In this document: positions 507 through 40,815 of the stretch, piece after piece | Layout: the number at the start of each line of letters is the position of its first letter | Numbering within the stretch: position 1 is the first letter of the stretch | Origin: Eledone cirrhosa | Taxonomy: Eukaryota | Length of the DNA stretch: 64,000 nt | Direction of reading: 5' to 3' | Assembly (NCBI GenBank): GCA_964016885.1 | Contig: OZ024742.1 | Span: 44,578,001 to 44,642,000 of the forward strand | Program-made: the position numbers and the translations under genes | The notes under the pieces: generated by a model | The model's database searches: none | What the model was told of the DNA's origin: nothing | The model's input: the letters and a program-made list of their open reading frames with translations, nothing else

Positions 507-3500
507 TTACAGACACATACTCAGAGAAGGCCCATTCATTCGGGCCATACTTGCTTCTCTCACCCATCTTTCAACAAAATGCTGGGAAGAGAGCACTTCC
601 CTCTCTACCCTGATTTTCCTTTTCAGATGAAATTTGAAAAAGTTAATCAGGGCATCACCGAAGAGGTAAGTGCTCGTCTTCAACCTTTTCAAACGTGTCC
701 ATCATACTATCTCTTTCGCCATGGCCACCAGACAGATAAAAACTGCCTGCCCTTCCCGGCTAAAGGAAGGGGGCGGGGCAATCCTCACGATGGACTCAGC
801 TGATAGCTGGATCCGTCCTACACGTGACAGCAGGTGTTCGACATAAACCCACAAGTCAGCAATGCTCGGACACTGGACGAGTGCGTGCAGGACGGTTTCG
901 TCGCCCTGCGCGCATCTCGGACATGCCCGGCTGACGGCACCTCCATGCCTGTAGAGTTTATCCTGAACTGGCAAAGCTCCTCGGTAGCACTGCCAGGCCA
1001 GGGATTTCTGGAAGTTGTCCATAGGCCCCGGCCCGAAAGTTCTTCCGAAGAGATTGGCTAGTTGATTTTCGTCGACGCCTAGAGTTTCTCCAAGTACGTC
1101 GTCGCTCTTCCCCTCCACTAATCCCCTATAGAACGCCAAGGTGGAGTTTCCACCGATCACATTGCCCGATTGGTCGAGGGCTGTGAGCGCCTGAAGACAT
1201 TCCAGTCTCCAAGCGCTCCCTCTCGGTCTTCGCTTGACCCAGGACTGCAGCTCCGTCAAGGAGACGAGCTGGGGAAAAACCCGTCTAGCAAACGGCGACC
1301 ACACCTGATCACCGTCGAGGAAGAGGTGGAGATGTCGTAGCCTGAGCGCGTGTCTGCGCATCATCAGCCACGGCATGCCCAGCCCTCCACGTAGCGGGTG
1401 TTGACAGCAGATGGACCGCCTGACCATCGGAGCGCGTCCCTTCCACAAGAAGCGAAAGAGCAAACGCTCCAGCGCAGTCAGGCGGGGCTTAGGACAAGGT
1501 ACGACGGTCAGGCGGTAGTAGATAACGGATGCGATGTACGCATTCGCCACCTCCGCTCGACCTTACAGGGATAGCTTCCTCTCGGCCCATTTCTGGGTGA
1601 GAGAAGACACCCTGCTCGTCACCTCGTCCCAGTTTTTGTCCGTTTTTGATGTTGAACGGTTCCGAAAGGTGACCGTTCACTCTCACTACAGAGCAGATGT
1701 CGCTGTGCATGGCAGCGATCCAGCCTCTGAAGACGGGCCCAAAGCCAGCCGCCCTCAGGACTGCCGCTAGGTAACGATGGTCGACCCTATCGAAAGCTTT
1801 CGACTGATCTAAATTGATCAAAGACCCACCCGTGCCAGGTTCCCTAGCTACCCTCTCTACGATGTATCGCATGAGGTGGAGGTTGTCGTGGATGGATCTG
1901 TCGGGAATGGCGCATGTCTGTGCCTCTCCCACCAGACCACCAACGTCAAGCGCCAACCTCTTTGCTAGCACCTTGGCCAAAATCTTGAACTCTGTGTTTA
2001 GCAGAGTTATGGGCCTAAAATGATCTATGTTATCCCCCTTGTTCGGATCCTTTCTCAGCAGCGCCACCGCTCCTCGGCTCACAGAGCTGGGAATTCTCCC
2101 GTTCTGTTGCCAGTTGCAGTAGACGTCCGCCAAGAGGCCTCCGAACAAGTTTGGCATTTGTACGTAAAGTTCATAGGGCAGACCATCCAAACCAGGCGAT
2201 TTACCCCTTGTGCAACTAGTCATTGCATCCCGTACTTCAGCGGTTGTTATCGGCTTTTCGCAACACTCCGCCTCAGTGGCCGAAAGCCGCGGCAGTCCGT
2301 CGAGGTATACACTAAAGTCCATCCCTCGACCCGGCCCGCCACTGCCCCCGAACAGTTGAGCGAAGTGTCGCTGAAAGGCATCACACATTTGCCCGGGATC
2401 GAGTAGCATGCGCCCGTCGTGGTCCACCAAAGACCGGATCGTGGCTTTGTTGCCACGACGCGCCTCCGCCACTCGGGCCCATTGAATGGCTTTCGTCCCC
2501 TCGTGTCTGAGAGCACGCACCCTAGCTCTGACAACGCAGCCTTCGTGCTTTGCATTGAAGAATTGGTCAAGGGCCAATTTCGCCGCAAGTACGTCGGTCG
2601 CGATGCCTTTGCTAAGCGCCTCATCTAATTTTCTAACTAATTCTCCCTCTGCTCTATTTTTCTCTATTGCTAAAGTCATACTAAACCTAATGGACTCTAT
2701 TCTAATTGCTCTTTTCAGAGCAAACCACCACTTGTTGTTGACGATGGCCTCCGTCAACGCCCGCTTAACTAGTTCGCTAATCCGGTCTCTGTAGGCCTTG
2801 CGCGCTGGTAAGGACGCGTTTAGCTTCCAGTAGCCGGGTCCTCGTCTATGAAGCCTATCTAAGTCAAGCACACAGATCACGAATTTGTGGTCCGTGTAGC
2901 TGACTATCTTGAATTGTGGACAGCCTATGCTAGACCTATCTATTTCCCTACAAAATACTCTATCTAGATATGATCTGGATGACCCTATGCGATTTGTCCA
3001 AGTCCACATTGGTACATTCGGGAAATCCATTCGGTACCTGTCAGACAGTTCAAAACGTCTGAGCAGGTTGGTGAGACTCTTGCACCCTCCTTCCCTATCC
3101 ACTAATCCCACACAATCCCAGCGTGCATCTAAGATCCCGTTCCAGTCGCCCACTAACACTAAAGAGCGGGACGTTCCAAGAAAGGTCTCCAGACGCCGGA
3201 AGAAATCAGGCCGCCCTGCTCCTGTCGGGGCATAGACGCCCACTAACCTGAAAGCTTGCCCGTCTCCGCTGGTCACGTCCAGCACCACCAACTTACCTTC
3301 TGGGTCCAGGAAGATGACCCGTATGGCAAGATCCAAACCTCTCCGAAAAAGCACAGCAACTCCTCCCCCGATCCCGGACGGCTGGGAGATGCGTACACAT
3401 CGTAGCCGCCGAAGATCGGTGCGAAAGCCTGTGCTTCGGAGATTCTGGTCTCGCTGATGGCCACTACATCTATGTTTAGTGACCTGAGGTCGTTGAGCAG

Positions 3501-3566
3501 GTGGCCCTGCTTCCATGACGACCCCAAGCCACGCGCATTTATGCTGCCTATTCTGAGTGAGGTCAT
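507..3566 (-). pseudogene. Tx1 copy A ORF2 (APE endonuclease + RT + Zn motif), disrupted
   Basis: MTSLRIGSINARGL...ISETR, GVAVL, VGDWN, SYLDR, TDH (APE). KSPGLDG, RPITLLN, NLDQSKAFDRVDH (RT). Frameshift at about 3365-3369, a deletion of about 360 bp at about 1644 that removes YADD, and a TGG>TGA stop at 702-704. The true C-terminus is ORF 507..692. Confidence 0.92.
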
Positions 3567-3600
3567 GTTGAAAAGGAATGGAAAAGATGGGAAAGACCAC

Positions 3601-5572
3601 TTACCTTACTTCTCGTAGGGGAAGGACGGTTTTTCCATCCTTTTCACTGCTTGTGGCCTCCTCACGAAGGATGTCCTTATAAATCCTCCTGGAGAGTGCT
3701 TGTCGGAAGTCTCCGATGTCTTTGGGGAATTTTTGTTTTAGTGTCATGTACGTTTTCTGTGTGATGCGAGTGATTTGTATGTGGGGAGGTGGTGTGAATT
3801 TTGGGGTTGTTGTGTAGTCTTTTTCTGTGATGCTGGTGTTGTGTTGGATGTAGTGTAATAATTGCTTGTTGTTCAAATTTAATGCTGTGTAGTGTGTATC
3901 GTTTTGGTTGTTTTGTTTTGTTTGCGTTTGTTGTGGGTTTGTTTCTGTTTCGCATTTTGGTGACTTTTGTGGTGTAGGTGATGGTGGTGTTGGAGTTAAT
4001 GATGGTGATGGTATTGGTGTTTGGGTTGATGGGGTTGGTGATGCTGGTGTGGATGGTGGCATATCTGTCCTAACTTTTTTGTTTCTTAGTTTATTTGTTT
4101 CCCTCTGTATTTTGTTTTTGGAGGGGGAAGGAAGAGAATTTTTTCTTTTTTGGTTTCTTTTTTTTTTTCCGGATATCGTTTCCCACTCCTCGTCGTCACA
4201 ATCTGTCTCCAGTTGTGATAGGCCGGGGAGTGGAAAATCCTCCACAGCCGTTAGTTTTGGTTGTGGTGTGGTGGATGGTGTAGGCGCTGGTGCTAGTTCT
4301 GAAGCGTTGGGTGGTGGTGGTGTTGGTTCTGCTACTGTTGCTGGGGTTGTTGCTGTTACAGTTGCTTCTGTTGTTGCTGCTACAGTTGTTGCTGCCATCT
4401 CTGCTACTGGTGGTGTTGATGGTTGTGTCACTGGGGTGGGTAGGAGAGGTGGCCTCAACCTTTTAGCCTGAGGGCAGAAAGCCCTTAGGTGGGTTCCTTC
4501 ACCACAAACGACACACCTAGGTCTTCTGCCCTCGACAATTACCGTGAGGTGGTTGCCGTCAGTGAGGTCTATTACCTCTGGGATCTCCTCAATGCTTTTT
4601 TGGTCCGCTTGGATTAGGAGCTCCATCCCAGATCCGGACCAGTTTTCCCGCTTTTCTTTTGCTATTGCTATTATTTTCGTGTTGGCTTCGATGCCGGCGA
4701 GGACAGCCGCTATTAGCCAGGGAATTTCGATGGCCGGTGGAACGTGGGTCACCCTGATCTTTACGAGTCTCTGGCCACAATAGCTTGGGACGAGTGTGAA
4801 GTCGTCACTTTTTTAATGGGGCCATGGAGTGTTCTCTAGCCTCCTCTGGTGTTTCAAAGAACACATCCACGGTTCCATACTTTTGCCCACGTCTGATGTG
4901 GGTTTTTCTTGCCCACACATGTCCCAAAGCTTTTTGGATTTGGGACTCGGATGCCCGTTCCACTCGGCGCGATTTTACATTTATTGTTCTATACGACACG
5001 GTGCATAGGCGCCGATGCTCCATTTTATTAGGTGGGGGGGTGAGGCTGACCCTGTACCCATTTTTCTTTACCATTTGTTTGGCATTTTCTAAATCGTCTT
5101 GAGTTACCGTGAATGCTTCAAATTGTTTTGCTACTATGGCGAAACTGAGGGTCGATTTCATAATGTCATTGTTGTTGTTGTTGCTATCGTTATTTGTGTT
5201 AATATTAATTTTAGTTTCAGTTGTGGTGGTGGTGACGTCAGTCGTCTTTGGTGCGGAAGAGTCCATTTTGCTTGATTTCATTTCGACATCACGAGTTAAT
5301 TTATTTTTTTCTTCTTTTGTTTCTGTTGTCGCGGTGGTGGTGGGGGTGGTGGTTGTCGCGGTGGTGGTGGTGGTGGAGGCTTTAACACCTGCAGTCATTG
5401 GTAATGGCGGGAAATGAATGTCTGCCTGAGACAAATTTAAAATATTGCTACTGCTTATATTTTTTTTTTTTGTGTTGGCCAACGTAGTAACATTTACAAT
5501 GGTGGTGTCGGTATGAGGTGTTAATTTGTGAGGAAGGCTTTCAGCTGCTTGTTGCAGAGGTGAATTAGCCAT
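3601..5572 (-). pseudogene. Tx1 copy A ORF1 (gag-like, CCHC zinc knuckle, Thr/Pro-rich linkers), one frameshift near 4810
   Basis: ATG at 5572 (MANSPLQQ...). ORFs 4805..5848 and 3601..4752 join as ...PLKSDDFTLVPSYCGQRLVKIRVTHVPP if one base is removed from the T6 run at 4809-4814. The knuckle reads CVVCGEGTHLRAFC. Confidence 0.82.
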
Positions 5573-5782
5573 TTTTTTTTTCAAAGAAATTTTTTGATAA
5601 TAATAAAAGTTAAAATTTTGGGCACAAGGCCCCAATCTTTTTGGGTGTCCTTTTCGGAAAACAATGTATGTGTGCTTATAAACAGTTAACAATAAAATTT
5701 TCCATAAATGGCAATTTTTAACAAACGGAAATAACAAACCTTTGCGGAGCTCACGATGATACGATTTACTACGTAGGTCGCC

Positions 5783-5830
<48 letters not shown>
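5783..5830. repeat. (TAA)n microsatellite: tail of Tx1 copy B, abutting the 5' end of copy A
   Basis: 16 AAT units read directly. Confidence 0.98.
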
Positions 5831-5832
<2 letters not shown>

Positions 5833-8800
5833 TTTCTTTATTAACCACAAGGGTTTACATAAAGTAGACATCAAGGGCAGTGCAGGACAATACAGGACGG
5901 TACAAATGGGCATTTCTGCGTGTAAAAAACAAAAACAGAGGATGTAACAAAAAAATAACAATGAAAAATTCCAAAATAGGGGGGAGACTTCGGAGGGACA
6001 TTTGTGGAGAAAGCCCAGTAAAAGGCCACAGTGACCCTGACCACCAAGGCAAGTTCCCTCTCCCAGTTTTCCACCTTTAATTTACAGATACGTACTCAGA
6101 GTAGGCCCATTCACTCGGGCCATTCTTGCTTCTCTCACCCATCTTTCAACAAAATGCTCGGAAGAGAGCACTTCCCTCTCTACTCTGATTTTCCTTTTCA
6201 AATGAAATTTGAAAAAGTCAATCAGGGCATCACCGAAGAGGTAAGTGCTCGTCTTCAGCCTTTCAAACGTGTCCACCATACTATCTCTTTCGCCATGGCC
6301 ACCAGACAGATAAAAACTGCCTGCCCTACCCGGCTAAAGGAAGAGGGCGGGGCAATCCTCACGATGGACTCAGATGATAGCCGAATCCGTCCTACACGCG
6401 ACAGCAGGTGTTCGACATAAACCCACAAGTCAGCAATTTTCGGACACTGGACGAGTGTGTGCAGGACGGTTTCGTCGCCCTGCGCGCATCTCGGACATGC
6501 CCGTCTGACGGCACCTCCATGCCTGTAGAGTTTATCCCGAACTGGCAAGGCTCCTCGGTAGCACTGCCAGGCCAGAGATTTCTGGAAGTTGTCCATAGGT
6601 CCCGGCCCGAAAGTTCTTCCGAAGAGATTGACTAGTTGATTTTCGTCGACGCCTAGAGTTTCCCCAAGTACGTCGTCGCTCTTCCCCTCCACTAATCCTC
6701 TATAGAACGCCGAGGTGGAGTTTCCACCGATCACATTGCCCGATTGGTCGAGGGCTGTGAGCGCCTGAAGACATTCCAGTCTCCAAGCGCTCCCTCTCGG
6801 TCTTCGCTTGACCCAGGACTGCAGCTCTGTCAAGGAAACGAGCTGGGGAAATACGTGTCTAGCAAACGGCGACCACACCTGATCACCGTCGAGGAAGAGG
6901 TGGAGATGTCGTAGCCTGAGCGCGTGTCTGCGCATCATCAGCCACGGCATGCCCAGCCCTCCATGTAGCGGGTGTTGACAGCAGATGGACCGCCTGACCA
7001 TCGGAGCGCGTCCCTTCCACAAAAAGCGAAAGAGCAAACGCTCCAGCGCAGTCAGGCGGGGCTTAGGACAAGGTACGACGGTCAGGCGGTAGCAGATGAC
7101 AGACGCGATGTACGCGTTAGCCACCTCCGCTTGACCTTTCAGGGATAGCTTCCTCTCCGCCCATTTCTGGGTGAGAGAAGCCACCCTGCTCGTCACCTCG
7201 TCCCAGTTTTTGTCCGTCTGGAGGTCTGGACCGAACCAGTCCCCTAGCAATTTAACCGGTCCGTCCGTCCAGCGTCCGACGACGCTGTTGGACGGCATGG
7301 ACCTGCCTCTCCAGGTGCCGAGCTGCAGGCCCACTGACTTTTCCTGGTTGATCATTGCTCCTGTCACCGCTTCGTATTCTCTTAGTGTAGTGCCGATCGC
7401 CTCGATGTGTTTGGCGTTCGACACCACTACGGTGACATCGTCCGCATATGCTGACACGGATCTTCCGCATCCTAGTTCGCGCGGGACGCCTCTCAACGTC
7501 TCCAGTTTGTGCAGTAATGGCTCGAGAGTCAATACGTACAAGAGGGACGAAAGGGGACATCATTGGCGGACCGAGTGCATGATGTTGAACGGTTCCGAAA
7601 GGTGATCGTTCACTCTCACCACAGAGCAGATGTCGCTGTGCATGGCAACGATCCAGCCTCTAAAGACGGGCCCAAAGCCAGCCGCCCTCAGGACTGCCGC
7701 TAGGTAACGATGGTCGACCCTATCGAAAGCTTTCGACTGATCTAAATTGATCAAGGACCCACCCGTGCCAGGTTCCCTAGCTACCCTCTCTACGATGTAT
7801 CGCATGAGGTGGAGGTTGTCGTGGATGGATCTGTCGGGAATGGCGCATGTCTGCGCCTCTCCCACCAGACCACCAACGACAAGCGCCAACCTCTTTGCTA
7901 GCAGCTTTGCCAAAATCTTGAACTCTGTGTTTAGCAGAGTTATGGGCCTGAAATTATCTATGTTATCTCCCTTGTTCGGATCCTTTCTCAGCAGTGCCAC
8001 CGCTCCTCGGCTCACAGAGCTGGGAATTCTCCCGTTCTGTCGCCAGTTGCAGTAGACGTCCGCCAAGAGGCCTCCGAACAAGTCTGGCATCTGTACGTAA
8101 AGTTCATAGGGCAGACCATCCAAACCAGGTGATTTACCCCTTGTGCAGCCAGTCATTGTTTCTCGTACTTCAGCGGCTGTTATCGGCTTTTCGCAACACT
8201 CCGCCTCAGTGGCCGAGAGCCGCGGCAGTCCGTCGAGGTAGACACTAAAGTCCATCCCTCGACCCGGCCCACCGCTGCCCCCGAACAGCTGAGCGAAGTG
8301 TCGCTGAAAAGCTTTACACATTTGCCCGGAATCGAGTAGCATGCGCCCGTCGTGGTCCACCAAAGACCGGATCGTGGCTTTGTTGCCACGACGCGCCCCC
8401 GCCACTCGGGCCCATTGAACGGCTTTCGTCCCCTCGTGTCTGAGAGCACGCACCCTAGCTCTGACAACGCAGCCTTCGTGCTTGGCATTGAAGAATTGGT
8501 CAAAGGCCAATTTCTCCGCAAGTACGTCGGTCGCGATGCCTTTGCTAAGTGCATCGTCTAATTTTCTAACTAGTTCTCCCTCCGCTCTATTTTTCTCGAT
8601 TGCTAAAGCCTTACTAAACCTAATGGATTCTATTCTAATCGCTCTTTTCAGAGCAAACCACCACTTGTTGTTGACGATGGTCCCCGTCAACGCCCGCTTA
8701 ACTAGTTCGCTAATCCGGTCTCTGTAGGCCTTGCGCGCTGGTAAGGACGCGTTTAGCTGCCAGTGGCCGGGTCCTCGTCTATGAAGCCTATCTAAGTCAA

Positions 8801-9346
8801 GCACACAGATCACGAATTTGTGGTCCGTGTAGCTGACTATCTTGAATTGTGGACAGCCTATGCTAGACCTATCTATTTCCCTACAAAATACTCTATCTAG
8901 ATATGATCTGGATGACCCTATGAGATTTGTCCAAGTCCACATTGGCACATTCGGGAAATCCAATCGGTACCTGTCAGACAGTTCAAAACGCCTGAGCAGG
9001 TTGGTGAGGCTCTTGCACCCTCCACCCCTATCCGCTAATCCCACACAGTCCCAGCGTGCATCTAAGATCCCGTTGCAGTCGCCCACTAACACTAAAGAGC
9101 AGGACGTTCCAAGAATGGTCTCCAGACGCCGGAAGAAATCAGGCCGCCCTGCTCCTGTCGGGGCATAGACGGCCACTAGCCTGAAAGCTTGCCCGTCTCC
9201 GCTGGTCACGTCCAGCACCACCAACTTACTCTCTGGGTCCAGGAAGATGGCCCGTATGGCGAGATCGAAACCTCTCCGAAAAAGCACAGCAACTCCTCCC
9301 CCGATCCAGGACGGCTGGGAGATGCGTACACATCGTAGCCGCCGAA
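5831..9346 (-). mobile_element. Tx1/L1-clade LINE, copy B, 5'-truncated inside the endonuclease; same family as copy A
   Basis: Colinear with 266-3410 at high identity. Retains SAYADDV. Nonsense codon in the QG motif (VRQ*CPLS, 7560-7562) and a 1-nt frameshift near 6260. ORF2 C-terminus ends at 6082. Confidence 0.93.
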
Positions 9347-9690
9347 AAGTGAACAGTGTATCAGTCATGATATACACTCAAATACATGCTTGTGTGTGTG
9401 TACGGAGGGGGAATATATCATGTGTAGTGTTGGCGAAGTTCGGGAAGCATGGACGTTTTGAAGGATGCAGTGTCCCAACAGCTAATAACTGATGCAGGTA
9501 GTTTGTTCCATGTTTCAGCAACTCTGAGTACGAAAAGATGTTTCCAAAAGTCATGGGAGCTGTACTGTTTTCTGATTTTGAAAGCATGTCCACGGGTTAA
9601 ACACATGGAATTCAAAAAGATGCTCAGGGTTGTTGTTGGCAAGATGGTTAATAATTTTGTGGGTGTCTACCAAGTCAGTTGCCAGACGTC
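9347..9690 (-). mobile_element. CR1-clade LINE 3' fragment
   Basis: ORF 9418..9642 contains TRGHAFKI...LFVLRVAETWNKLPASVI...SFK, matching the CR1 ORF2 C-terminal RGH-K...RV..WN.LP...FK signature. Confidence 0.75.
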
Positions 9691-10510: not shown

Positions 10511-11155
10511 CACGATACAATTATAAGATGTCACCTTCCAATGTCACATCCAATCCAGCTTCAGCAAACTTTGAAACTTCTTCATTACCCCACATCCTTC
10601 AATGTTGTTCTTTGACTTGAGTAGAACTCCCATCCAAACTGCATTTCAGTAGTTTCTCATGACCCTTTTCAGGCAATATCAATAAAATGGACAGCATTTA
10701 AAATGTCAAATGACTGCCAGCAATCTTTTACAGTCATATCAGTGATAGTGTCTAATACCTTGACTATTTTCTTAAACAATTCCTGACGGTAGTGCCTGAA
10801 TTATGGTGAAAAGAAACCAAAGATTGTAAAACATCATAGAAATTCTGTAAACATGCTTTTCTTAAAATAATTATGTTTTGTATGACTTCAATTGTTTATA
10901 ATCAGTTATCTGAACAAAACACTCCCAGCTCATCTCATTTAGATAATTGCAATCTAACTGTAATACACAAATCTTTCACAAAGAATAGTGTGTAAAAAAA
11001 AAAAAAAAAAAGAAAAAAAAAAGATCTTGTTTATAATTGCTCAGTTACCCTATATGCTGGCTGGCTGAAATTGCACTGGTGGTGCTGCTGTGAAAATTTA
11101 AATTAGGGAAAATTTCAAATGGCATAAAATTAGAATGGCCAGTAAATATATATAT

Positions 11156-11294
11156 ATCTTTATTTTATTTAGAAATGACTTCTACAGGACTAGAACTATT
11201 TCATTTATATGAAATCATTGGGACATTTCTGATGATTTTGAGTGAATGAAACAGTTCTAGTCCTGTAGAAGTCATTTCTGAATACAATAAAGAT
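11156..11294. repeat. 50-bp inverted repeat (11156-11205 / 11245-11294) between (TA)n tracts; probable PLE inverted pseudo-LTR remnant
   Basis: The arms match at 47 of 50 positions when reverse-complemented. The right arm overlaps a hammerhead motif and an AATAAA. Confidence 0.85.
11222..11273 (+). ncRNA. Type I hammerhead ribozyme-like motif (degenerate stem II)
   Basis: CTGATGA at 11229-11235 and GAAA at 11248-11251. Stem III is CAG/CTG around an 8-nt loop. GTA cleavage triplet at 11265-11267. Stem I is GAC(A)TTT paired with GAAGTC. Confidence 0.62.
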
Positions 11295-11559
11295 GCCTAT
11301 AATCTACCAATGTATTTCCCAATCCCCATCAGGAATCCACCCATAATTATATATATATCTTACTAAACCCCCACAGAACAGAGAACGCTCTTCTTTTGTG
11401 CCAAAGACCAACAACCAATCTAGCCTTGGTATTATGTTGTTTTTTTTTCACCCTGACTCCAAGTTCTTCTGCTCCTGTTGTATATAATTAACCCTGAAGT
11501 TCCATCAAAGTCAATATTATCCAAATGTTTAATCAAAGGAATGGAAGAAGTTCAGGGAG

Positions 11560-13925: not shown

Positions 13926-16900
13926 ATGAGTGATGTAAAACTACCGGAAGAATTTACCAATGACCACACAGTAAATATCTATGGGAACACTTTAATCAGT
14001 GAACAAGAACAACAAATCCTAAAGTTACCACCAAAATTTGCCATCTACAAAAAGATTAATCCTATGGAATGCAAAACGGAGCTGGAAAAGTGTTTCACAA
14101 AAATACGTTGGAATGCAAAGGTAAACAACAACAACAATAATAACGGTAGTAGTAATATAAACAATAACTCTGGGTATAGAAATAACAGCCATAACCATAA
14201 CAATGGCAGGAAAGTGAGAAATAGTGATAATGGTAATAATACTAGCGATAGACAGAACAACAACAACCACAATAATAATAATAATAGAAACGTTAACCAC
14301 AGACACAGCAACAGTGACCACAGTAGTAATAACGGTAACAATACGAACAACAACAACAACAATAACCACAGTGGTAATAATGGAAATAGTACATGTAGCA
14401 ACATCAACAAAAACAAGAAACATAATAATAGTAACAACCACAATGGTAGAAATAGCAGTAACAACAACAACAATAACGGTGAAGTAAACAACAATACATC
14501 TAGCAATCATAACAATAATAATATTAATGCTAAGGATAGAAACAACAACAACCACCATGATAACAATAATAGCAACACACACAACTATGACGATAGAAAT
14601 AACGACAACCCCTTAGAGAAACTATTTTTCAACCCAGCTGACAAAACATATAAGATGGGTAATATCTATCCTACGAGGTTACCCTTTAATAAAAGAGTTT
14701 GCATACCACAACAAATAGATGACGAGACGGAGGCACAGTTCACCATAGCTAGAAATAAGATTAGACAAGTAGTAGACAGGTACACTATGAGACAGAGCAG
14801 ACCAGAGGCCCAACAACTTGGGATAAAACCTGTAGAAGGCTTGGTTAGCCTCAAGCAGCGCACAAGGGATGGTGAGGTAGTGTGTCTACCCACAGATAAG
14901 TCTGGTAGGATGTCAATAGATAGCATGCCGAACTACATCGAGGCAATGCAACCCCACATCACCAACACGAGCGAAGTTGCACAACTAACACACGATGGGA
15001 GAGAAAAAATCCTCAACGCTCACATGATGATGTGGACTGACATCCTAAAGCCAAGCAGACGCACTGCCAACAACTTCCAGGCGTCTAACAATGGCATACC
15101 ACCCTTGTATGGGCTCCGCAAAGACCACAAGACAGTCGACGACCCGACAATAGGACCACCAACAAGACCGGTATGCGGAGCTAATATAGCTAGCAACTAC
15201 AGGATCTCCTACTTCCTCTCAATGGTTATACGCCCCATAATCAAGATGTCCCCAGATGTATGTGAAAGTACAGAGGACCTCCTCAGCAGAATCAGTGAGT
15301 GCAACAAAAACAGGAGCCTATCCAACTGCATAATAGGCAGCATGGATGTGGTGTCACTGTACCCATCCATTAACATTGATTTTGCTGTGAAAAGATGTGT
15401 GGAGATGATCATTGAGAGTGAGGTGGAGTTCTGCGACGTCGACACAGACGAACTGGGCCTCCTACTTAGGCTTACCTACGACACTGACTACCTAGACAGC
15501 CATGACCTTAGATGTTTCTGCCCTAGTAGACCTATAAGAGGTAGACCCCCCACCATAACCTCAATGGCTAAAAAGACTCCCATAGGAAGGTGGATTGGGT
15601 GGACCAAAGCTATACGGACCCCCCAAAACACTGATCAGGTAAGAAAAATGGTCGCACATGCAATAGGGGCTAGTATCAAAACTACCCTAAAGGGCCACAT
15701 ATTTAAGTTCAATGAGAAAATCTACACCCAAAATGAGGGAGCAGCCATCGGCGTCAGCATAGCTGGCGATGTTGCCAACCTTTTCATGGTATGGTGGGAA
15801 AGGAGACTTAAAGATCTCCTTAATGAAAGCTCCATAGACCTCATCATGTACTCTCGTTATGTAGACGATATCAATATAGTTATAAGAACACCCCCACTAG
15901 AGAGCACTAACAAGTTTGATTTAGAACGTAGCACGATGGAAAGCATCCAGCAGATAGCTAATTCCATACACCAGAGTATAACTCTAACTATAGACTTCCC
16001 TTCCAAACACCCTAACAATAGACTACCTGTATTAGACACAGAACTCTGGATTAACACTATAGACGAGAGAGCCCAAATTCTCCACTCACACTATGCTAAA
16101 CCCATGGCCTCCAAATACCTGATACTCAAAAACTCAGCAATGTCCAGTAGTGCTAAGTTTAATATTCTGATCGCAGATTTGGTACGAGTGATGAAGAATG
16201 TGTCCAGCATGTGCGACCCAACAGAAATGGAAGGACACATCCAACACTTCATCAACCGCATGCAGTTCTCTGGCTACAACCAAAGAGACAGAGTCAGAGT
16301 ATACGAAGGAGCCATGGAAAAGTATAAGACCCTCATAGAACTGGACATGAAAGGAATTTGCCCACTATACAGGAGCAAATCATGGAATAGCTTAGATAGG
16401 GCTAGACATAAGATAGGGAAGGCCACATCATGGTACGACAACCAGAGATATCAGAGTGTCATGTTTGTGGACGCCACCCCTGGAGGGAAATTAGCTAACC
16501 AGTGTAGAAAGGCCCTGAGAAAGACCCACTTAAAAATAAAGGTGGTAGAAAAGCCAGGAACCACCATAAAATCCCTGATCAGCAAAACCTACCCTTTTAA
16601 GAAAACCCACTGTACCAATAGGAAATGTATCATATGTAAGGTGAACCCCCGGATAAACTGTAAAACTAGAAACGTAGTCTATAGCATAAGATGTACAGAG
16701 GGTACTTGCAGAAACACGACAACAACATACATAGGTGAGACAGCTCGTAGCATAGGTGAAAGGATAGACCAACACTGGGGGGAACTAAAAGGACGAAAAA
16801 ACGGGTCAGTACTATACGAACATGCTAGACAACATCATGACGGTAACATAGACAACATAGAAATTAGAATAATATCTAAACATAGGAATGACCCAGCAGA

Positions 16901-17015
16901 TAGGCAAATCAGAGAGGCCAGTGAAATAGAAATTAGAAGACCAAAGCTAAACAGAAAGAATGAGTGGAACAACAACAACACCCAAACAAACAACACTGAC
17001 CTAAGAGAAGTATAA
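13926..17015 (+). CDS. PLE polyprotein, 1029 aa uninterrupted: Asn-rich insert, RT, Cys-rich linker, GIY-YIG endonuclease
   Basis: PTDKSG, LYGLRKDHK, RPV, SMDVVSLYPSI, QNEGAAIG, RYVDD, LPVLD. Linker CTNRKCIIC. EN NVVYSIRC...YIGETARSIGERIDQH...H...RQIREA...LN. The ATG sits at the (TA)n junction and is probably not the native start. Confidence 0.92.
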   Translation: MSDVKLPEEFTNDHTVNIYGNTLISEQEQQILKLPPKFAIYKKINPMECKTELEKCFTKIRWNAKVNNNNNNNGSSNINNNSGYRNNSHNHNNGRKVRNSDNGNNTSDRQNNNNHNNNNNRNVNHRHSNSDHSSNNGNNTNNNNNNNHSGNNGNSTCSNINKNKKHNNSNNHNGRNSSNNNNNNGEVNNNTSSNHNNNNINAKDRNNNNHHDNNNSNTHNYDDRNNDNPLEKLFFNPADKTYKMGNIYPTRLPFNKRVCIPQQIDDETEAQFTIARNKIRQVVDRYTMRQSRPEAQQLGIKPVEGLVSLKQRTRDGEVVCLPTDKSGRMSIDSMPNYIEAMQPHITNTSEVAQLTHDGREKILNAHMMMWTDILKPSRRTANNFQASNNGIPPLYGLRKDHKTVDDPTIGPPTRPVCGANIASNYRISYFLSMVIRPIIKMSPDVCESTEDLLSRISECNKNRSLSNCIIGSMDVVSLYPSINIDFAVKRCVEMIIESEVEFCDVDTDELGLLLRLTYDTDYLDSHDLRCFCPSRPIRGRPPTITSMAKKTPIGRWIGWTKAIRTPQNTDQVRKMVAHAIGASIKTTLKGHIFKFNEKIYTQNEGAAIGVSIAGDVANLFMVWWERRLKDLLNESSIDLIMYSRYVDDINIVIRTPPLESTNKFDLERSTMESIQQIANSIHQSITLTIDFPSKHPNNRLPVLDTELWINTIDERAQILHSHYAKPMASKYLILKNSAMSSSAKFNILIADLVRVMKNVSSMCDPTEMEGHIQHFINRMQFSGYNQRDRVRVYEGAMEKYKTLIELDMKGICPLYRSKSWNSLDRARHKIGKATSWYDNQRYQSVMFVDATPGGKLANQCRKALRKTHLKIKVVEKPGTTIKSLISKTYPFKKTHCTNRKCIICKVNPRINCKTRNVVYSIRCTEGTCRNTTTTYIGETARSIGERIDQHWGELKGRKNGSVLYEHARQHHDGNIDNIEIRIISKHRNDPADRQIREASEIEIRRPKLNRKNEWNNNNTQTNNTDLREV

Positions 17016-17284
17016 ATAAATAAGTAAATTAAATTAAATAAAATAAGATAAATAAATACATACACAAGCACATAAACACACACTAGTCACCCAGCAGACA
17101 ACACTATACACACTAGTCACACATCACACATAACACTATACACACACGCAAACGCATGCGCAAAGAAGACAAAATAAAATAAGATAAACAAACAAGCAAA
17201 TAAATAAATAAATAAATATATAGACAGACTGAACAAAAAAATGGCGTAGACATACAACACAACAGGAGGAACAATGAATATAAC

Positions 17285-17325
17285 ACCACTGACGATGTTG
17301 CAGATGTGCAACGAAAGATTTATGT
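17285..17325 (+). ncRNA. Minimal type I hammerhead ribozyme motif in the PLE1 pseudo-LTR
   Basis: CTGACGA at 17289-17295, stem II GTTGCA-GATG-TGCAAC, GAAA at 17313-17316. The near-palindromic AGATTT forms a minimal stem III with a TTA triplet. Stem I is weak. Confidence 0.65.
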
Positions 17326-17529
17326 AAACTATATATATATGTGTTTGTCTATATTGTATCTGTATTATTTTTGACCGCCGGTCAGTCAATGGCAACATTG
17401 AGGACCGAGTAAGTTAGATCGCAGATATATATATATAAAAGACAGCGAGAAGCGAAAACCAACCAAACAGTGAGTGTGTTCTGTTATTAATTCTGGCAAT
17501 ATTACGCAAATATGACCCTCCCCAAATAT

Positions 17530-17533
<4 letters not shown>

Positions 17534-17572
<39 letters not shown>
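17534..17572. repeat. (TA)n microsatellite at the PLE1 3' junction
   Basis: Read directly. Confidence 0.95.
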
Positions 17573-28830: not shown

Positions 28831-29752
28831 ACAAAACATTGGAAAGTATGATGAAAAAAAATTCCCAAATTTACGTTTAGTCTACTACAAACACAAACCA
28901 AAAGTATTCAGTAAACTAAAGTGTAAAATGGATCCAGCTCACGTTAGGACACACTAAAGAAATGAAATTGCCTCGTCCATCGAACACACTCTTTGTGGCA
29001 GTATGTATGTCATTGAGGTACACCCTTTTATTGGATATGTTAACCAGACCTGCTAACCTCTAAAAACCCAAATGGAGAGTACCATGAAAAAAATGCCCCA
29101 AAACGGGGAGAAATGAGGCAAAATGGGGAGATGTTACATAATGAAAGCTGTACCCCTTTTCACAAGAGAAGACATCTCTCACCCACCCCAAAGTGGGTGG
29201 TAGATCTCTCCGTCTGACGCGGAAAGTCGACAGGTCTGTATTAACCTGTCAATTTGCACATAAAATGTTGGTTCCAACACTCGAACTAAGAACATTCAAG
29301 TGACGCAGATTATAAAATTAGATGAAAATCTGAGACTAATGAAAATTCTTGAAATTTTTTTTCGGAATCAACGTTATTTTGATTCGTAACTTTTTCAATG
29401 TCTTCCCGCCAAAAATGTATGTAATGCAGTCTTTTCAACAGAAATATTTGCGTGTCATTTGGATGCAAGAGGATTATAATTTCACAAGGTATTTATCCAT
29501 TGGCCTAGCATTCATTACTTTATTTATATATATATATATTTCGTTTCTGAATTTGTTTAGCAAGATTCTTTATCTGAAATCGTGTGTTGAAACCGATATT
29601 GTTATACTTTGGGAGGGTCATGTTGCCAATAAGAAACACATGCACCAGTTGCTTTCACTTCAATTTATTATAATAAATTTATAATAAATTTATAAATTTA
29701 TAAATTTCTGGTTGGTTGGTTGGTTCCACAACCAGATAGTTGTTTATATATT

Positions 29753-29795
29753 GTCATAGTTCTTTCGTCACACACTCTGTGACCTCTTCAGTGAC
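29753..29795 (-). ncRNA. Minimal type I hammerhead ribozyme in the PLE2 pseudo-LTR
   Basis: Minus strand reads GTCA-CTGAAGA-G-GTCACA-GAGTG-TGTGAC-GAAA-GAACTA-TGAC: 4-bp stem I, 6-bp stem II, minimal stem III, CTA triplet. Confidence 0.8.
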
Positions 29796-29996
29796 TGGGG
29801 ATTCCTTTCTTTGTTTCTGTGCCTCTCCTTTGTTCTGTCCTACGCCATTTTGTTTCTGTGTGTGTGTTGTGTGCTCAGTCTGCGCATGCGCCACATCCGG
29901 GTGTCTGTGTGTGTTTATGTTCATTTATTTATTTGTTTATTTACATGTTACTGGTTGGTTGTTTGTTCTATGTGTGTGTGTGTTTTCATTTTGTCC

Positions 29997-31862
29997 TTAA
30001 TTGTAAGTTGTGATGTTGCTGTTCCACTCATATTTTCTATTTAATTTTGGTTGTAATTCTTTTATGTTTATTGCCTCTGTAATTTGTCTAAACATTGCGT
30101 CTTTTCTGTGTGTAGATTCTATTTTTATTTCTATGTTCTCTAATTTACCCTTGTGTTCTATTTTAGCATGTTGGTAGAGTACAGATGATTCTTTACTATT
30201 TTGAAGGTCTCGCCAGTGTTCATTTATCCGTTCCCCTACACTACGAGCTGTCTCACCTATGTACACTATATTTTTGTCTCTACATTGTCCTTCAGTACAT
30301 CTTATGCTATACACTACATTTCTAGTTTTACAGTTAATATGGGGGCTTATTTTACAGGTTATACATTTCTTATCTATACCCTATTGAAAAGGGTATGTCT
30401 TGCTAATAAGTGTTTTTACGGAGGTACCTGGTCTTTCTACTATCTTAATATTGAGTTTATGTTTATTTAGGGCCCTTCTAAATTTGTAAGCTAATTCACC
30501 TCTAGGGGTTGTATCGATGAACATTACACTCTGGTATTTATTGCTATCATACCATGAGTTTATTCTATTAGCCTTGTTCCTAGTTCTTTCTATTCTATTC
30601 CAAAATTTTCTCCTATACAAGGGGCTGGTCCCATTTATGTCATTATTTACCATTTTTTCCCATTTGGTTCTGGCTCCTCTATACACTCTGATTTTATCTC
30701 TCGGATTGTAGCCAGAGAACTGCATACGGTGGATGAAGTGTTGTATGCGTCTCTCTAGTTCTTCGGGGTTGCACATGCGGGACACGTTTCTCATCACCCG
30801 TACCAAATCCGTAATCAGTATGTTGATTTTGGTATGGTCCAAAACGGCCGAGTTTCGGTGGATCAGATGTTTGGAAGTCATGTGTTTGGCATAATGGGAA
30901 TGGAGGATTTGTTTTTTGTTATTAATGGTATCTAACCAGAGCTCTGTGTCTAGTACAGGTAATCGATGGTTGGGGTGTTTACTTGGGTAGTCTATAGTAA
31001 CTCTAATGCTCTGGTGGATGGAGTTAGCTATTTGCTGGATGCTTTCCATTGTGTTTTTCTCTATTTCCTGACTGTTCTCTAGTGGGGGTGTCTTAACTAC
31101 GATGTTTATATCATCAACGTAGCGGGAGTACATTATCTGGGTTAAGGGGTCTTCTAATTGTTCTTTAAGTTTAAGTTTAAGTCTACTGTCCCACCATAAT
31201 AAGTTAGCTATGTCGCCTGCAATGCTAACACCAATGGCTGCTCCTTCCTCTTGGGCATATGTTTTTCCATTAAATTTGAACATATGTTCCTTAAGGGTTA
31301 GTTTTATGCTGGCCCCTACCGCATGTGCAATCATTTTCTTCAGTTCATCGTGGTTTTCGGGTGTCCGTATGGCTCTGGTCCACCCGTTCCATCTATCTGT
31401 GTGGGTTTTCTTGGCCATTGAGGTAATGGTAGGTGGTCTGCCTCTTGCTGGTCTTGTAGGGCACAAGTTGCTAAGGTCATATGTGTCTAGGTAATTATTA
31501 CTATAGGTAAGTTTAAGTAGGAGTCCCAGCTCACTGGTATCAATCCCACGGAACTCAACATTGCTCTCACTGATCATTTCTACGCATTTCTCCACAGCAA
31601 AATCCACGTCAATAGATGGATACAGGGACACAACATCCATACTACCTATTATGCAGTTTGTTAGGTCCCTAGATCGGTTACTCACGCCGATTCTGCTGAG
31701 GAGGTCCTCCGTGCTGTCACATACATCTGGGGACATTTCAATGATGGGGCGTATGATCAGGGAGAGGAAGTAGGACAGTCTGTAGTTACTAGCAATGTTA
31801 GCTCCACAGACTGGCCGTGTTGGTGGTCCCGCGACAGGGTCACTGCCCGTTTTATGGTCTTT
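29997..31862 (-). pseudogene. PLE2 RT-GIY-YIG ORF remnant
   Basis: ORFs 30381..31736 and 29997..30314 are in the same frame. The linker reads *GIDKKCITCKISPHINCKTRNVVYSIRC. Confidence 0.88.
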
Positions 31863-33789: not shown

Positions 33790-34690
33790 GTTGTGGAGGT
33801 ACTGTGTGGTATTGATGGTGGAAATTGTAGTTATGGTGGTAGTGGCCGTGCTTGTATTGGAGATGCTGTGTTGTGCTGGTTGTGGCAGTTGTAGCTGTGG
33901 TGGTGGTGGGTGATGATTATGGTAGTTGTCATGGTGGTAGTGGTGAGGCAATGTACTTGTAGTGGAGGTACTATGTTGTGGTAGTTGTAGTGGTGGTAGT
34001 AGTTATAGGGAGATGAAGTATTGGTTGTGGTGGTATGGTAGCTGTGTTAGTTTAATGGTGGTAACTGTGGCTGTTGTTATGGTGGGTGGTGGTGATGGTA
34101 CTTGTAGAGCTTCTGTGTTGTGCTATTAGCAGTGCTGTTGGCAGCTGCACTAGTATGGTGGATGGTGGTGTTGACTGTAGTATTGATGATTGTGCTAGTG
34201 GTGCTATTGGTCATAGTGATGCTGTTTTGTAGAGGTGGTGCTCATGCTAGTTGTACTAATGGAAAGGATTGTTGTTGTTTAGCCCAAGGTCAACCCTAAT
34301 GGAACAGGTTCATGATCAAAGACATTACAATCACTATGATCCTATCTTTTCCTTGTATGCAAGGAACTTATGACCATAACAGCCAATGTATTGTTCTAAG
34401 ATGGTAGTGTAAGATTTAAAAGAATTTAGCTGTTATATCTAGCAAGATGAGTGATCACATAGAGAATCACTTGTTGGCTTTAATTGTAGGTGTGTATTGT
34501 AGTAGTGGTGGTGGGATTGTAGTGGCAGTGGTAGTAGTATTGTATGATAGTGGTGGTAATAGTGATGATAGTGACAGTAGTGATGTATGGTTGTAGTAGT
34601 AGTTGTTCTGGTGTATGGTAGTAGTGATAGTGATGGTAATAGTAGTGGTGTATGGTGGTAATAGTAGTAGTGGTGTTAGTGGAGGTGGTA
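33790..34690. repeat. Degenerate (GTG/GTA/GAT)n low-complexity zone leading into satellite 1
   Basis: G/T-rich trinucleotide mosaic without a fixed period, interrupted by about 230 bp of unique sequence near 34260-34490. Confidence 0.8.
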
Positions 34691-37600
34691 GTAGTAGTAG
34701 TGGTGATAGTGGTAGTTGTGGTGTTGACAGTGGTGGTGGTAGTAGTAGTTGTGGTGATGGTATTAGTTGTGATGTTGACAGTGGTGGTGGTAGTAGTAGT
34801 TGTGGTGATGGTATTAGTTGTGATGTTGACAGTGGTGGTGGTAGTAGTAGTTGTGGTGATGGTATTAGTTGTGATGTTGACAGTGGAGGTGGTAGTAGTA
34901 GTTTTGGTGATGGTGGTAGTTGTGGTGTTGACAGTAGAGGTGGTAGTAGTAGTTGTGGTGATGGTATTAGTTGTGGTGTTGACAGTGGTGGTGGTAGTAG
35001 TAGTTGTGGTGATGGTGTTAGTTGTGGTGTTGACAGTGGAGGTGGTAGTAGTAGTTGTGGTGATGGTATTAGTTGTGATGTTGACAGTGGTGGTGGTAGT
35101 AGTAGTTGTGGTGATGGTGTTAGTTGTGGTGTTGACAGTGGTGGTGGTAGTAGTAGTTGTGGTGATGGTATTAGTTGTGGTGTTGACAGTGGTGGTGGTA
35201 GTAGTAGTTGTGGTGATGGTGTTAGTTGTGGTGTTGACAGTGGTGGTGGTAGTAGTAGTTGTGGTGATGGTATTAGTTGTGGTGTTGACAGTGGTGGTGG
35301 TAGTAGTAGTTATGGTGGTGGTATTAGTTGTGATGTTGACAGTGGAGGTGGTAGTAGTAGTTTTGGTGATGGTGGTAGTTGTGGTGTTGACAGTGGAGGT
35401 GGTAGTAGTAGTTGTGGTGATGGTATTAGTTGTGGTGTTGACAGTGGTGGTGGTAGTAGTAGTTGTGGTGATGGTATTAGTTGTGGTGTTGACAGTGGAG
35501 GTGGTAGTAGTAGTTGTGGTGATGGTGTTAGTTGTGGTGTTGACAGTGGTGGTGGTAGTAGTAGTTGTGGTGATGGTGTTAGTTGTGGTGTTGACAGTGG
35601 TGGTGGTAGTAGTAGTTTTGGTGATGGTATTAGTTGTGGTGTTGTCAGTGGTGGTGGTAGTAGTAGTTTTGGTGATGGTATTAGTTGTGGTGTTGACAGT
35701 GGTGGTGGTAGTAGTAGTTTTGGTGATGGTGTTAGTTGTGGTGTTGACAGTGGTGGTGGTAGTAGTAGTTGTGGTGATGGTGTTAGTTGTGGTGTTGACA
35801 GTGGTGGTGGTAGTAGTAGTTGTGGTGATGGTGGTAGTTGTGGTGTTGACAGTGGTGGTGGTAGTAGTAGTTGTGGTGATGGTGTTAGTTGTGGTGTTGA
35901 CAGTGGTGGTGGTAGTAGTAGTTGTGGTGATGGTATTAGTTGTGATGTTGACAGTGGTGGTGGTAGTAGTAGTTGTGGTGATGGTGTTAGTTGTGGTGTT
36001 GACAGTGGTGGTGGTAGTAGTAGTTGTGGTGATGGTATTAGTTGTGGTGTTGACAGTGGTGGTGGTAGTAGTAGTTGTGGTGATGGTATTAGTTGTGATG
36101 TTGACAGTGGTGGTGGTAGTAGTAGTTGTGGTGATGGTGTTAGTTGTGGTGTTGACAGTGGTGGTGGTAGTAGTAGTTTTGGTGATGGTATTAGTTGTGG
36201 TGTTGTCAGTGGTGGTGGTAGTAGTAGTTTTGGTGATGGTATTAGTTGTGGTGTTGACAGTGGTGGTGGTAGTAGTAGTTGTGGTGATGGTGTTAGTTGT
36301 GGTGTTGACAGTGGAGGTGGTAGTAGTAGTTGTGGTGATGGTATTAGTTGTGGTGTTGTCAGTGGTGGTGGTAGTAGTAGTTTTGGTGATGGTATTAGTT
36401 GTGGTGTTGACAGTGGTGGTGGTAGTAGTAGTTGTGGTGATGGTGTTAGTTGTGGTGTTGACAGTGGAGGTGGTAGTAGTAGTTGTGGTGATGGTGTTAG
36501 TTGTGGTGTTGACAGTGGTGGTGGTAGTAGTAGTTGTGGTGATGGTGTTAGTTGTGGTGTTGACAGTGGTGGTGGTAGTAGTAGTTGTGGTGATGGTATT
36601 AGTTGTGGTGTTGACAGTGGTGGTGGTAGTAGTAGTTATGGTGGTGGTATTAGTTGTGATGTTGACAGTGGAGGTGGTAGTAGTAGTTTTGGTGATGGTG
36701 GTAGTTGTGGTGTTGACAGTGGTGGTGGTAGTAGTAGTTATGGTGATGGTGTTAGTTGTGGTGTTGACAGTGGTGGTGGTAGTAGTAGTTGTGGTGATGG
36801 TGTTAGTTGTGGTGTTGACAGTGGTGGTGGTAGTAGTAGTTGTGGTGATGGTGTTAGTTGTGGTGTTGACAGTGGTGGTGGTAGTAGTAGTTGTGGTGAT
36901 GGTGTTAGTTGTGGTGTTGACAGTGGTGGTGGTAGTAGTAGTTGTGGTGATGGTGTTAGTTGTGGTGTTGACAGTGGTGGTGGTAGTAGTAGTTATGGTG
37001 ATGGTATTAGTTGTGATGTTGACAGTGGAGGTGGTAGTAGTAGTTTTGGTGATGGTGGTAGTTGTGGTGTTGACAGTGGTGGTGGTAGTAGTAGTTTTGG
37101 TGATGGTGGTAGTTGTGGTGTTGACAGTGGTGGTGGTAGTAGTAGTTGTGGTGATGGTGGTAGTTGTGGTGTTGACAGTGGTGGTGGTAGTAGTAGTTGT
37201 GGTGATGGTGTTAGTTGTGGTGTTGACAGTGGAGGTGGTAGTAGTAGTTGTGGTGATGGTGTTAGTTGTGATGTTGACAGTGGTGGTGGTAGTAGTAGTT
37301 ATGGTGATGGTATTAGTTGTGGTGTTGACAGTGGTGGTGGTAGTAGTAGTTTTGGTGATGGTGGTAGTTGTGATGTTGACAGTGGAGGTGGTAGTAGTAG
37401 TTTTGGTGATGGTGGTAGTTGTGATGTTGACAGTGGTGGTGGTAGTAGTAGTTTTGGTGATGGTGGTAGTTGTGGTGTTGACAGTGGTGGTGGTAGTAGT
37501 AGTTGTGGTGATGGTGGTAGTTGTGGTGTTGACAGTGGAGGTGGTAGTAGTAGTTTTGGTGATGGTGGTAGTTGTGATGTTGACAGTGGTGGTGGTAGTA

Positions 37601-40034: not shown

Positions 40035-40815
40035 ATGATAATGGTGGTGATAGTGAAAGTATATGATAGTGGTGGTGATGGTATTAGTAGTGATGGTGAT
40101 GGTATATGATAGTGGGGAGGGTGTTAGTAGTGGTGGGGATAGTGACAACAGGAGTGTTAGTGATGGTAGTAATGGTATATGATAGTGGCAGCCATGATGG
40201 TGTTAGTAGTAGTGGTAGTATTGGTGGTGATGGTATTAGTGGTAGTGGTAGTATTGGTGGTGGTAGTGGTGGTGGTAGTAGTGACCATGATGGTATTAGT
40301 GGTAGTGGTAGTATTGGTGGTGATGGTATTAGTTGTGGTGGTGGTAGTAGTAGTGTAGGTGGTAGTAGTGATGGTGTTAGTAGTAGTTGTGGTGGTAGTA
40401 GTAGTACAAGTCTGCGTGTTTGCAGTTCTACCTTTACTTATGTGTGTTTGTGTTAATGACTACATGTGTGTTTCATACTGTCAGTACTTATGTATGTTTG
40501 TGTGTGTACATGTATGTGTGTTTGTGTGTGTACATGTATGTGTGTTTGTGTGTATAGATGTGTGTGGTGTTTGTGTGTGTACATGTTTGTGTGTGAACAT
40601 GTATGTGTGTTTGTGTGTATACATGCGTGTGGTGTTTGTGTGTGTACATGTTTGTGCGTGAACATGTATGTGTGTTTGTGTGTATACATGTGTGTGGTGT
40701 TTGTGTGTGTACTTGTATATGTGTATGCATTAACTTCTATGTGTGTTTGTGTGTGTACATCTATGTGTATTTATGTACTTGTATGTGAGTCTGTATGCAC
40801 GTATGTAGATGTGTA
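40035..40815. repeat. Degenerate trinucleotide repeats, then (TG)/TACA-rich repeats, forming the spacer between the satellites
   Basis: GTA/GTG mosaic to about 40405, then TGTGTGTTTGTGTGTACA-type repeats. Confidence 0.8.

Follow-up and report, generated by a model that had tools for sequence, protein, structure and literature searches.

A likely start of capped RNA between NRF1-like and YY1-like words in the pseudo-LTR of an abundant octopus Penelope-like element

The window analyzed here, a stretch of 64,000 nucleotides of contig OZ024742.1 from Eledone cirrhosa, contains two 5′-truncated Penelope-like elements (PLEs), PLE1 on the plus strand and PLE2 on the minus strand (Table 1). The region at 17150..17538 represents the pseudo-LTR of a Penelope-like retrotransposon that is very abundant. 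A domain search of the element gave a weak RVT_1 match (E 2e-4) and a GIY-YIG match (E 3e-5), and the arrangement of a reverse transcriptase (RT) together with a GIY-YIG endonuclease at the C terminus in a single ORF is that of canonical EN+ PLEs. The PLE1 linker before GIY-YIG reads Cx4CxxCx7C and falls within the short Cx2-5CxxC spacing of the Nematis clade, as judged by eye against the rows of Fig. S2 of PMC8557442. PLE1 ends at ORF +26, within (TA)n. Additionally, a long Asn-rich insertion was present within the PLE1 ORF, N-terminal to the RT (14120-14610). Elsewhere in the window, we observed two degraded APE+RT non-LTR elements in tandem on the minus strand (702-9377), a 70-bp inverted repeat with 84% complementarity and a 13-nt loop (11149-11301) and two long tandem arrays with a 51-bp period and extreme strand skew (34500-40100 and 40750-64000).

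Table 1. Positions of the features of the two PLE copies in the window.
Feature	Position	Strand	Remarks
PLE1, lineage-A subfamily A1, 5′-truncated (RT + linker + GIY-YIG)	13926..17537	+	without the first 181 codons
PLE1 stop codon	17013-17015	+	
NRF1-like word ACGCATGCGCA	17152..17162	+	putative; likely upstream activator site
Putative transcription-start cluster	17214..17238	+	from 5′ ends of sister copies; extra-G ends at ~17214 and ~17226
YY1/TISU-like word AAAATGGCGTAG	17238..17249	+	contains AAAATGGCG at 17238-17246; start-stop uORF ATG GCG TAG
Minimal type-I hammerhead (predicted)	17285..17326	+	core CTGACGA 17289-17295; stem II 17297-17312; 2-bp helix III; predicted cut after 17322
TATA-like tract	17432..17441	+	retained in lineage A; not followed by a start footprint
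GT-rich box GTGAGTGTGTTCTGTT	17470..17485	+	kept in both lineages; splice-donor-like or GU-rich element
ORF start MTLPKYNN	17512..17537	+	copy end = first of two putative reverse-transcription start sites (+26)
PLE2, lineage-B (B2), 5′-truncated	29536..31862	-	in-frame stop 30381-30383; ~60-nt tail, end at ORF +86
NRF1-like palindrome GCGCATGCGC	29882..29891	-	
Putative start cluster of PLE2	29851..29863	-	by homology with subfamily B3
YY1/TISU-like word AAAATGGCGTAG of PLE2	29840..29851	-	AAAATGGCG at 29851-29843
Minimal hammerhead of PLE2 (predicted)	29753..29795	-	stem I of 4 bp; stem II of 6 bp; cut predicted after 29757
GT-rich box of PLE2	29631..29645	-	before ATG at 29621

Each pseudo-LTR carries an NRF1-like word followed by a YY1/TISU-like word, and CGCATGCG and AAAATGGCG were each found at only these two places within the window. 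The positions that the first-pass annotation had assigned to the two words and the ATG of both elements, and to the hammerhead core of PLE1, were all confirmed. The start-stop uORF ATG-GCG-TAG (17241-17249 and 29848-29840) was present in both lineages at most ~30 nt from the putative cap, and additional uATGs were located before the main ATG. The GT-rich box, a donor-like or GU-rich sequence, lay 24-42 nt before the ATG (17470-17485 and 29645-29631). In lineage B, this box was preceded by AATAAA or ATTAAA, so it may represent a 3′-processing signal. A 5′UTR intron with GTGAGT/GTGCGT as a donor-like site was considered and rejected, as no acceptor or spliced form was seen.

The ORF-start pattern common to the family occurred at 51,635 ends genome-wide (3.0 Gb), and the word pair CATGCGCA-N15-45-AARATGGCG occurred 12,092 times, as compared with a single occurrence of the control. 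On sequence grounds, PLE1 is a young copy belonging to subfamily A1 of lineage A; the 40 kin scored out of 517 candidates were all 99-100% identical. Between lineages A and B, 489 of 730 residues were shared, as were 98 of 186 fourfold sites (53%), and the closest named relative protein was from Octopus vulgaris (69%), with other relatives at most ~55% identical. We found MTLPKYNN to be the true N-terminus of the ORF, which bore out the hidden ORF start (MTLPKYNNI) proposed earlier: in the tandem copy L012, MTLPKYNNICFDTRF... continued into the ORF found in the window, and an open frame of 1257-1283 aa from MTLPKYNN was present in 7 of 30 lineage-B loci. Among 11 clusters picked as paired matches, 10 were inverted two-arm insertions, the pseudo-LTR and inverted truncated copy arrangement of PLEs, and the 11th belonged to lineage B and was not mapped by the reference used. 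One locus (L110) had the layout pLTR-ORF-pLTR. Head-to-tail arrays of full units were observed at L260-L264 (G000:C1:14381657-14395801), L184, L189/L190 and L110, with a unit length of ~4,146 bp in lineage A and 4,290-4,420 bp in lineage B. Together with the open ORFs in many lineage-B copies, these arrays make the family look recently active. The module was absent from 30 loci of other GIY-YIG families in the genome; both words occurred at only one of these loci, far downstream, where they probably represent an inserted copy. No relatives were found when metagenome contigs were scanned with a single protein, nor when collections of viral and prokaryote sequences were scanned with an alignment.

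The upstream palindromic word is labeled NRF1-like by its resemblance to the NRF1 consensus, and the TAG at the end of the second word is not known to belong to the YY1 consensus. Between the two lineages, both words were among the top three exact matches. Of 1000 dinucleotide shuffles, 10 and 16, respectively, contained a match as good as either word, and 0 contained two such words; the neutral-survival P for two words was ~0.016, allowing for the relatedness of the lineages. The between-lineage conservation of the two words is thus real but modest. The UTRs had been described as not alignable for the most part, which was overstated, as a 14-nt low-complexity word scored as high as the two motifs, and the GT-rich box and TGGCAA before the ATG were also common to PLE1 and PLE2.

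To compare the words with their flanks, 106 pseudo-LTRs were placed on trees and a subset was grouped by eye into ten subfamilies, after removal of 13 rows that were odd or duplicated and reduction of the young groups to 8 rows. Across A4-A1, 22 of 23 motif columns were invariant versus 115 of 149 flanking ungapped columns (P = 0.028). The difference was not significant when A5 was included (12/19 motif versus 93/137 ungapped columns) or within lineage B (19/23 versus 114/141 columns). The YY1 core AARATGG was kept in 8 of 9-10 subfamily groups, and CATGCGCA, or one change from it, was kept in 9 of 9-10. In particular, B2 and B3 carried a perfect palindrome, the abundant B1 carried a broken one (ACACATGCGCA), and B0 had an A-type NRF1-like word with ATGGTG at the YY1 word. 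In A5, the YY1 word was replaced, and four A5-type copies contained neither word. The proposal of a selected cassette therefore held insofar as the words were kept across two lineages; the within-lineage tests were mixed, and A5 does without the YY1 word.

The pseudo-LTR contained a predicted minimal hammerhead, as is characteristic of PLEs, with an invariant core and 92.8% of cells paired over 15 distinct rows. Two compensatory pairs were found in stem II, a type of count that related rows inflate. At E up to 1, Rfam gave no hammerhead match in 10000-34500, and the minimal form was therefore evaluated by alignment. When folded as single strands, the hammerheads were no more stable than shuffles (z -0.4), which is what one would expect of a minimal motif. 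Most copies read through the predicted cut. Downstream of the hammerhead, the TATA-like tract TATAAAAG was invariant in all 8 columns across A4-A1 and was followed by the conserved GT box, while B3 contained no equivalent tract. The first-pass annotation had listed a TATA-like TATATAAA in the same order in both elements. This did not hold for PLE2, where TATATAAA (29750) lies 7 nt past the cut, compared with ~110 nt for that of PLE1 (17432), and the two are not the same element.

At their 3′ ends, copies terminated at ORF +26 (42/85 and 37/85) or at +84 to +86 (19/85 and 39/85), as expected of an optional tail, and 70/85 and 75/85 ends ran into (TA)n. The two end points match the tail that Frangieh et al. 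(PMC11167929) trace to two internal reverse-transcription starts.

Copies were then chosen by the 3′-end pattern alone, and their 5′ ends were mapped for the first 100 listed matches each of A1 (3,519 in total) and B3 (3,044 in total). The 5′ ends piled up in an interval from -25 to +6 of the YY1 word, the limits of which were set after seeing the data. In B3, 33 of 61 mapped arms ended in this interval versus 1.36 expected (100 ends, of which 39 ran longer), and in A1, 10 of 59 mapped arms did so versus 1.93 expected (99 ends, of which 40 ran longer). When counted as insertions, since arms form inverted pairs, the pile-up comprised ~18-19 insertions in B3 (P = 1e-14) and ~6 in A1 (P = 0.014). 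The older subfamilies showed 12 of 40 mapped arms versus 1.96 expected (63 ends, of which 13 ran longer and 10 low-scoring ones were left out), although the idea of a pile-up had been prompted by 30 of these 60 older loci themselves. We also found the same pile-up in A5 (122 pattern matches; 30 loci), with 5 ends versus 0.96 expected (P = 0.003). As A5 lacks the YY1 word, the start position does not need this word.

An extra G before A at a pyrimidine-A step was present in 12 of 43 interval arms, counted by hand, versus 2 of 69 arms elsewhere (P = 1.6e-4). In six insertions (L295, L393, L395, L403, L356 and L347), the extra G fitted neither arm; in 6 of the 12 G-before-A arms, the partner arm could template the G or the junction was rearranged. 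The enrichment was weaker for any extra G (15/43 versus 11/69, P = 0.037). An untemplated G is an accepted mark of the copied cap in capped L1/SVA RNA (PMC4859970). The pile-up thus likely marks the start of a capped RNA between the NRF1-like and YY1-like words. We also considered that it might be an RT stop or an RNA processing end, such as a poly(A)-cleavage fragment after the AATAAA tract or a fold-back at the A run. AATAAA repeats do lie just upstream in A1 (17199-17216), A-run stutter was observed at junctions of mapped copies, and the A5 pile-up ends showed no clear extra G. However, the AATAAA tract is >100 nt further upstream in B3, which has the strongest pile-up and the clearest extra G; the extra G occurs at pyrimidine-A starts, and 39-40 of ~100 arms pass the site, so we regard such an end as very unlikely.

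A start after the TATA-like tract or the hammerhead cut is more improbable still. The invariance of TATAAAAG and its neighboring GT box would suit it, as would the lineage-A ends near the cut, which were in weak excess (4 versus 1.43 expected, P = 0.058). This excess did not amount to a clear pile-up and was not seen in lineage B (2 versus 1.35). Only 1 of 59 mapped A1 arms ended at +226..+232, without an extra G, and the missing tract in B3 also argues against such a start. Moreover, copy ends at +26/+85 need RNA that is uncut downstream of the hammerhead. Judged indirectly from the mapped copy ends, no start was found ~30 nt after the box, where a TATA-box promoter would place it. The earlier claim of a promoter thus gained support from the pile-up, with the start moved to between the two words, upstream of the hammerhead. 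As to self-processing of the RNA, compensatory changes preserve the fold, but many copies read through the cut and their ends do not clearly accumulate there.

We consider it probable that the pseudo-LTR acts as a Pol II promoter with a capped start between the NRF1-like and YY1-like words, 85-110 nt before the predicted minimal hammerhead. From the alignments and copy ends, the order is likely an NRF1-like site, the start, a YY1/TISU-like site with the uORF, the hammerhead, the ATG and two reverse-transcription starts. At human starts, NRF1 acts upstream and YY1 just downstream (PMC11269187), and the same order around the putative start was found here. A gene with an NRF1 DNA-binding domain was present in the genome. 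Whether the NRF1 and YY1 proteins bind and activate is less certain, and on balance we lean slightly towards their doing so. Reverse transcription would begin inside the RNA, at ORF +26 or +85. On the 5′ part of the capped transcript, RT would pass the uncut hammerhead and fall off at the cap. The short copies made in this way would begin at the start site, and some would carry a G derived from the cap.

Long copies would mostly come from another RNA. Of the ORF-leading pseudo-LTRs that reached the interval (23 distinct junctions, some of them internal junctions of arrays), only one began there, compared with 43 of 152 arms overall (P = 0.01). By lineage, the contrast was found in B (0/14, P = 0.002) and not in A (1/9 versus 10/69). 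There are hints in these junctions that long copies may derive from RNA extending upstream of the start, either multimers or hammerhead-made circles; circles as a template were proposed by Cervera and de la Pena (PMC4209133). With the NRF1-like word located upstream of the start, only a partial tandem that brings a 3′ end to lie before an ORF would rebuild the full promoter. The notion that one copy drives the next unit is plausible for tandems elsewhere, as 11 of the 14 junctions between a pseudo-LTR and an ORF contained the NRF1-like word. It is not applicable to PLE1 and PLE2, both of them 5′-truncated copies that terminate in (TA)n without a unit downstream, and any promoter activity of these two copies would read into flanking DNA.

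The start could be real and yet be set by an A-rich tract or an initiator, with the two words as inherited remnants under little selection. The persistence of the pile-up in A5, the within-lineage tests that were not significant in B or with A5 and the limited neutral-survival P all lend this some weight. Against it, the words survive in most subfamily groups, where they are arranged around the start in the textbook order, and in A1, where the NRF1-YY1 spacing has grown to 75 nt, the start has stayed near the YY1 word. In addition, CRE words fill the same slot in relatives, as described below. We therefore consider remnants unlikely.

It is less likely again that the words act in RNA, with AUG-GCG-UAG as a TISU-like start-stop uORF adjusting how strongly the main ORF is translated, and with the palindrome serving hammerhead dimers as a pairing signal. 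The ATG and TAG of the uORF were kept while its middle codon varied (GCG, GTG in B0 and GAG in single old copies), and a TAG that is not known to belong to the YY1 consensus fits a role in RNA. TISU (AAGAUGG) doubles as a YY1 site and a translation start for short UTRs (PMC2518114), and minimal hammerheads are thought to act as dimers (PMC4209133). However, the NRF1-like word lies upstream of the putative start and would be absent from the RNA 5′ end, the B1 word is not a full palindrome, and no stable RNA fold was found around the words (z -0.8 and +1.3). A uORF role and a promoter role can coexist.

We compared the slot after the endonuclease with that of relatives at 19 metagenome loci, 8 of which had sequence past the endonuclease. 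The NRF1/YY1 words were found in 0 of these 8, while TGACGTCA, which we take to be the CRE palindrome, was present at most 200 nt after the endonuclease in 6 of 8. Its density there was 10 copies in 1,586 nt versus 1 in 16,854 nt of ORF. In the protein tails, [LMV]TS, one reading of this palindrome, occurred 23 times versus 0.88 expected among the 84 of 119 related proteins whose endonuclease end could be detected (a count on proteins only, in which codons are not seen). The slot thus holds another classic activator site in other hosts, and CRE palindromes after the ORF look clade-wide. One to four of them lie right after the ORF at L121, L122, L123, L124, L128 and L129 and in the tails of P0009, P0010, P0019, P0029, P0039 and P0043. 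We also observed, in L122, a long repeat of a 21-nt type in the N-terminal region followed by a stretch that appeared protease-like by eye. In other GIY-YIG families of the genome, paired TTGGCGC words around CCAATCA, or CACGTG with CCAAT, were observed at L148, L150, L153, L155, L163, L166 and L168 (500-1400 nt after GIY-YIG) and at L154, L158 and L161. These may be cell-cycle-type promoter words, of the E2F, E-box and CCAAT types.

Taken further, the promoter reading allows a broader proposal that we put forward tentatively, as possible rather than probable. Genomic copies may record the in vivo life cycle, in which capped RNA from the NRF1/YY1 promoter would give short cDNAs, made across an uncut hammerhead, and hammerhead circles or multimers would give long copies. 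The pre-hammerhead slot may be an exchangeable U3-like module of host activator sites, holding CRE in marine relatives and NRF1 plus YY1 in octopus, with >12,000 outward-facing promoter cassettes scattered through the genome. Such a start site, readable from genome sequence alone, yields precise predictions that CAGE, reporter and circular-RNA assays could address, and the method (3′-anchored sampling followed by mapping of 5′ ends and extra G) is usable for any high-copy PLE. The arrangement also suggests why partial tandems are needed, namely to restore the upstream site, and it hints that a cephalopod genome holds a large reservoir of potential promoters.

A pseudo-LTR promoter, a minimal hammerhead and a tail are known PLE anatomy (PMC2377424, PMC4209133, PMC11167929); the promoter map and the genomic start footprint, that is, a 5′-end pile-up just before the YY1-like word, often with a cap-like extra G, are new here. 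In the literature found, no report described YY1, NRF1, CRE or cap footprints in PLE pseudo-LTRs, with most subscription papers, Repbase notes and some supplements outside this scope, and D. virilis Penelope was the only PLE with a dissected promoter. As described by Schostak et al. 2008 (PMC2377424), Penelope of Drosophila virilis resembles the octopus PLE in its promoter and start in a partial-tandem pseudo-LTR, its start (371) upstream of the hammerhead, its optional tail at the ORF start and its inverted truncated copy. In contrast, the promoter of Penelope is internal, TATA-less and of the DPE type, and its 5′UTR has an intron (416-491) that ends at helix I, whereas here the start is flanked by candidate activator words, one being upstream of it, and the tail is ~59 nt. 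The Anolis carolinensis element Poseidon (Frangieh et al. 2024, PMC11167929) is similar in its two internal reverse-transcription starts in the ORF, which define the tail, its AT-rich targets and its main substrate of uncut RNA. Its hammerhead overlaps the start codon, whereas the one found here lies 190 nt upstream; that paper maps no promoter and, in the sections consulted, describes no cap footprint in genomic copies. The minimal hammerheads known from metazoan PLEs (Cervera and de la Pena 2014, PMC4209133) share the long helix II, the extra base before helix II, the short helix I and the tiny helix III; compared with those described there, we found no essential difference, and here helix III is self-complementary only in A1/A2. 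The Nematis/Neptune-type PLEs (Craig et al. 2021, PMC8557442) likewise have a C-terminal GIY-YIG with CCHH and (TA)n targeting, and the Cx4CxxC linker spacing resembles the Nematis rows of their Fig. S2, a comparison made by eye. The octopus elements that we found named in the supplement of that paper are Naiads, with an N-terminal endonuclease, and the present PLE is not a Naiad. Human LINE-1 (PMC4859970, PMC11602158) is also similar, in having a YY1 site near the RNA start and an untemplated 5′ G in cap-reaching copies, but it differs in its internal promoter in a true 5′UTR and poly(A)-primed copying, with no hammerhead or pseudo-LTR.
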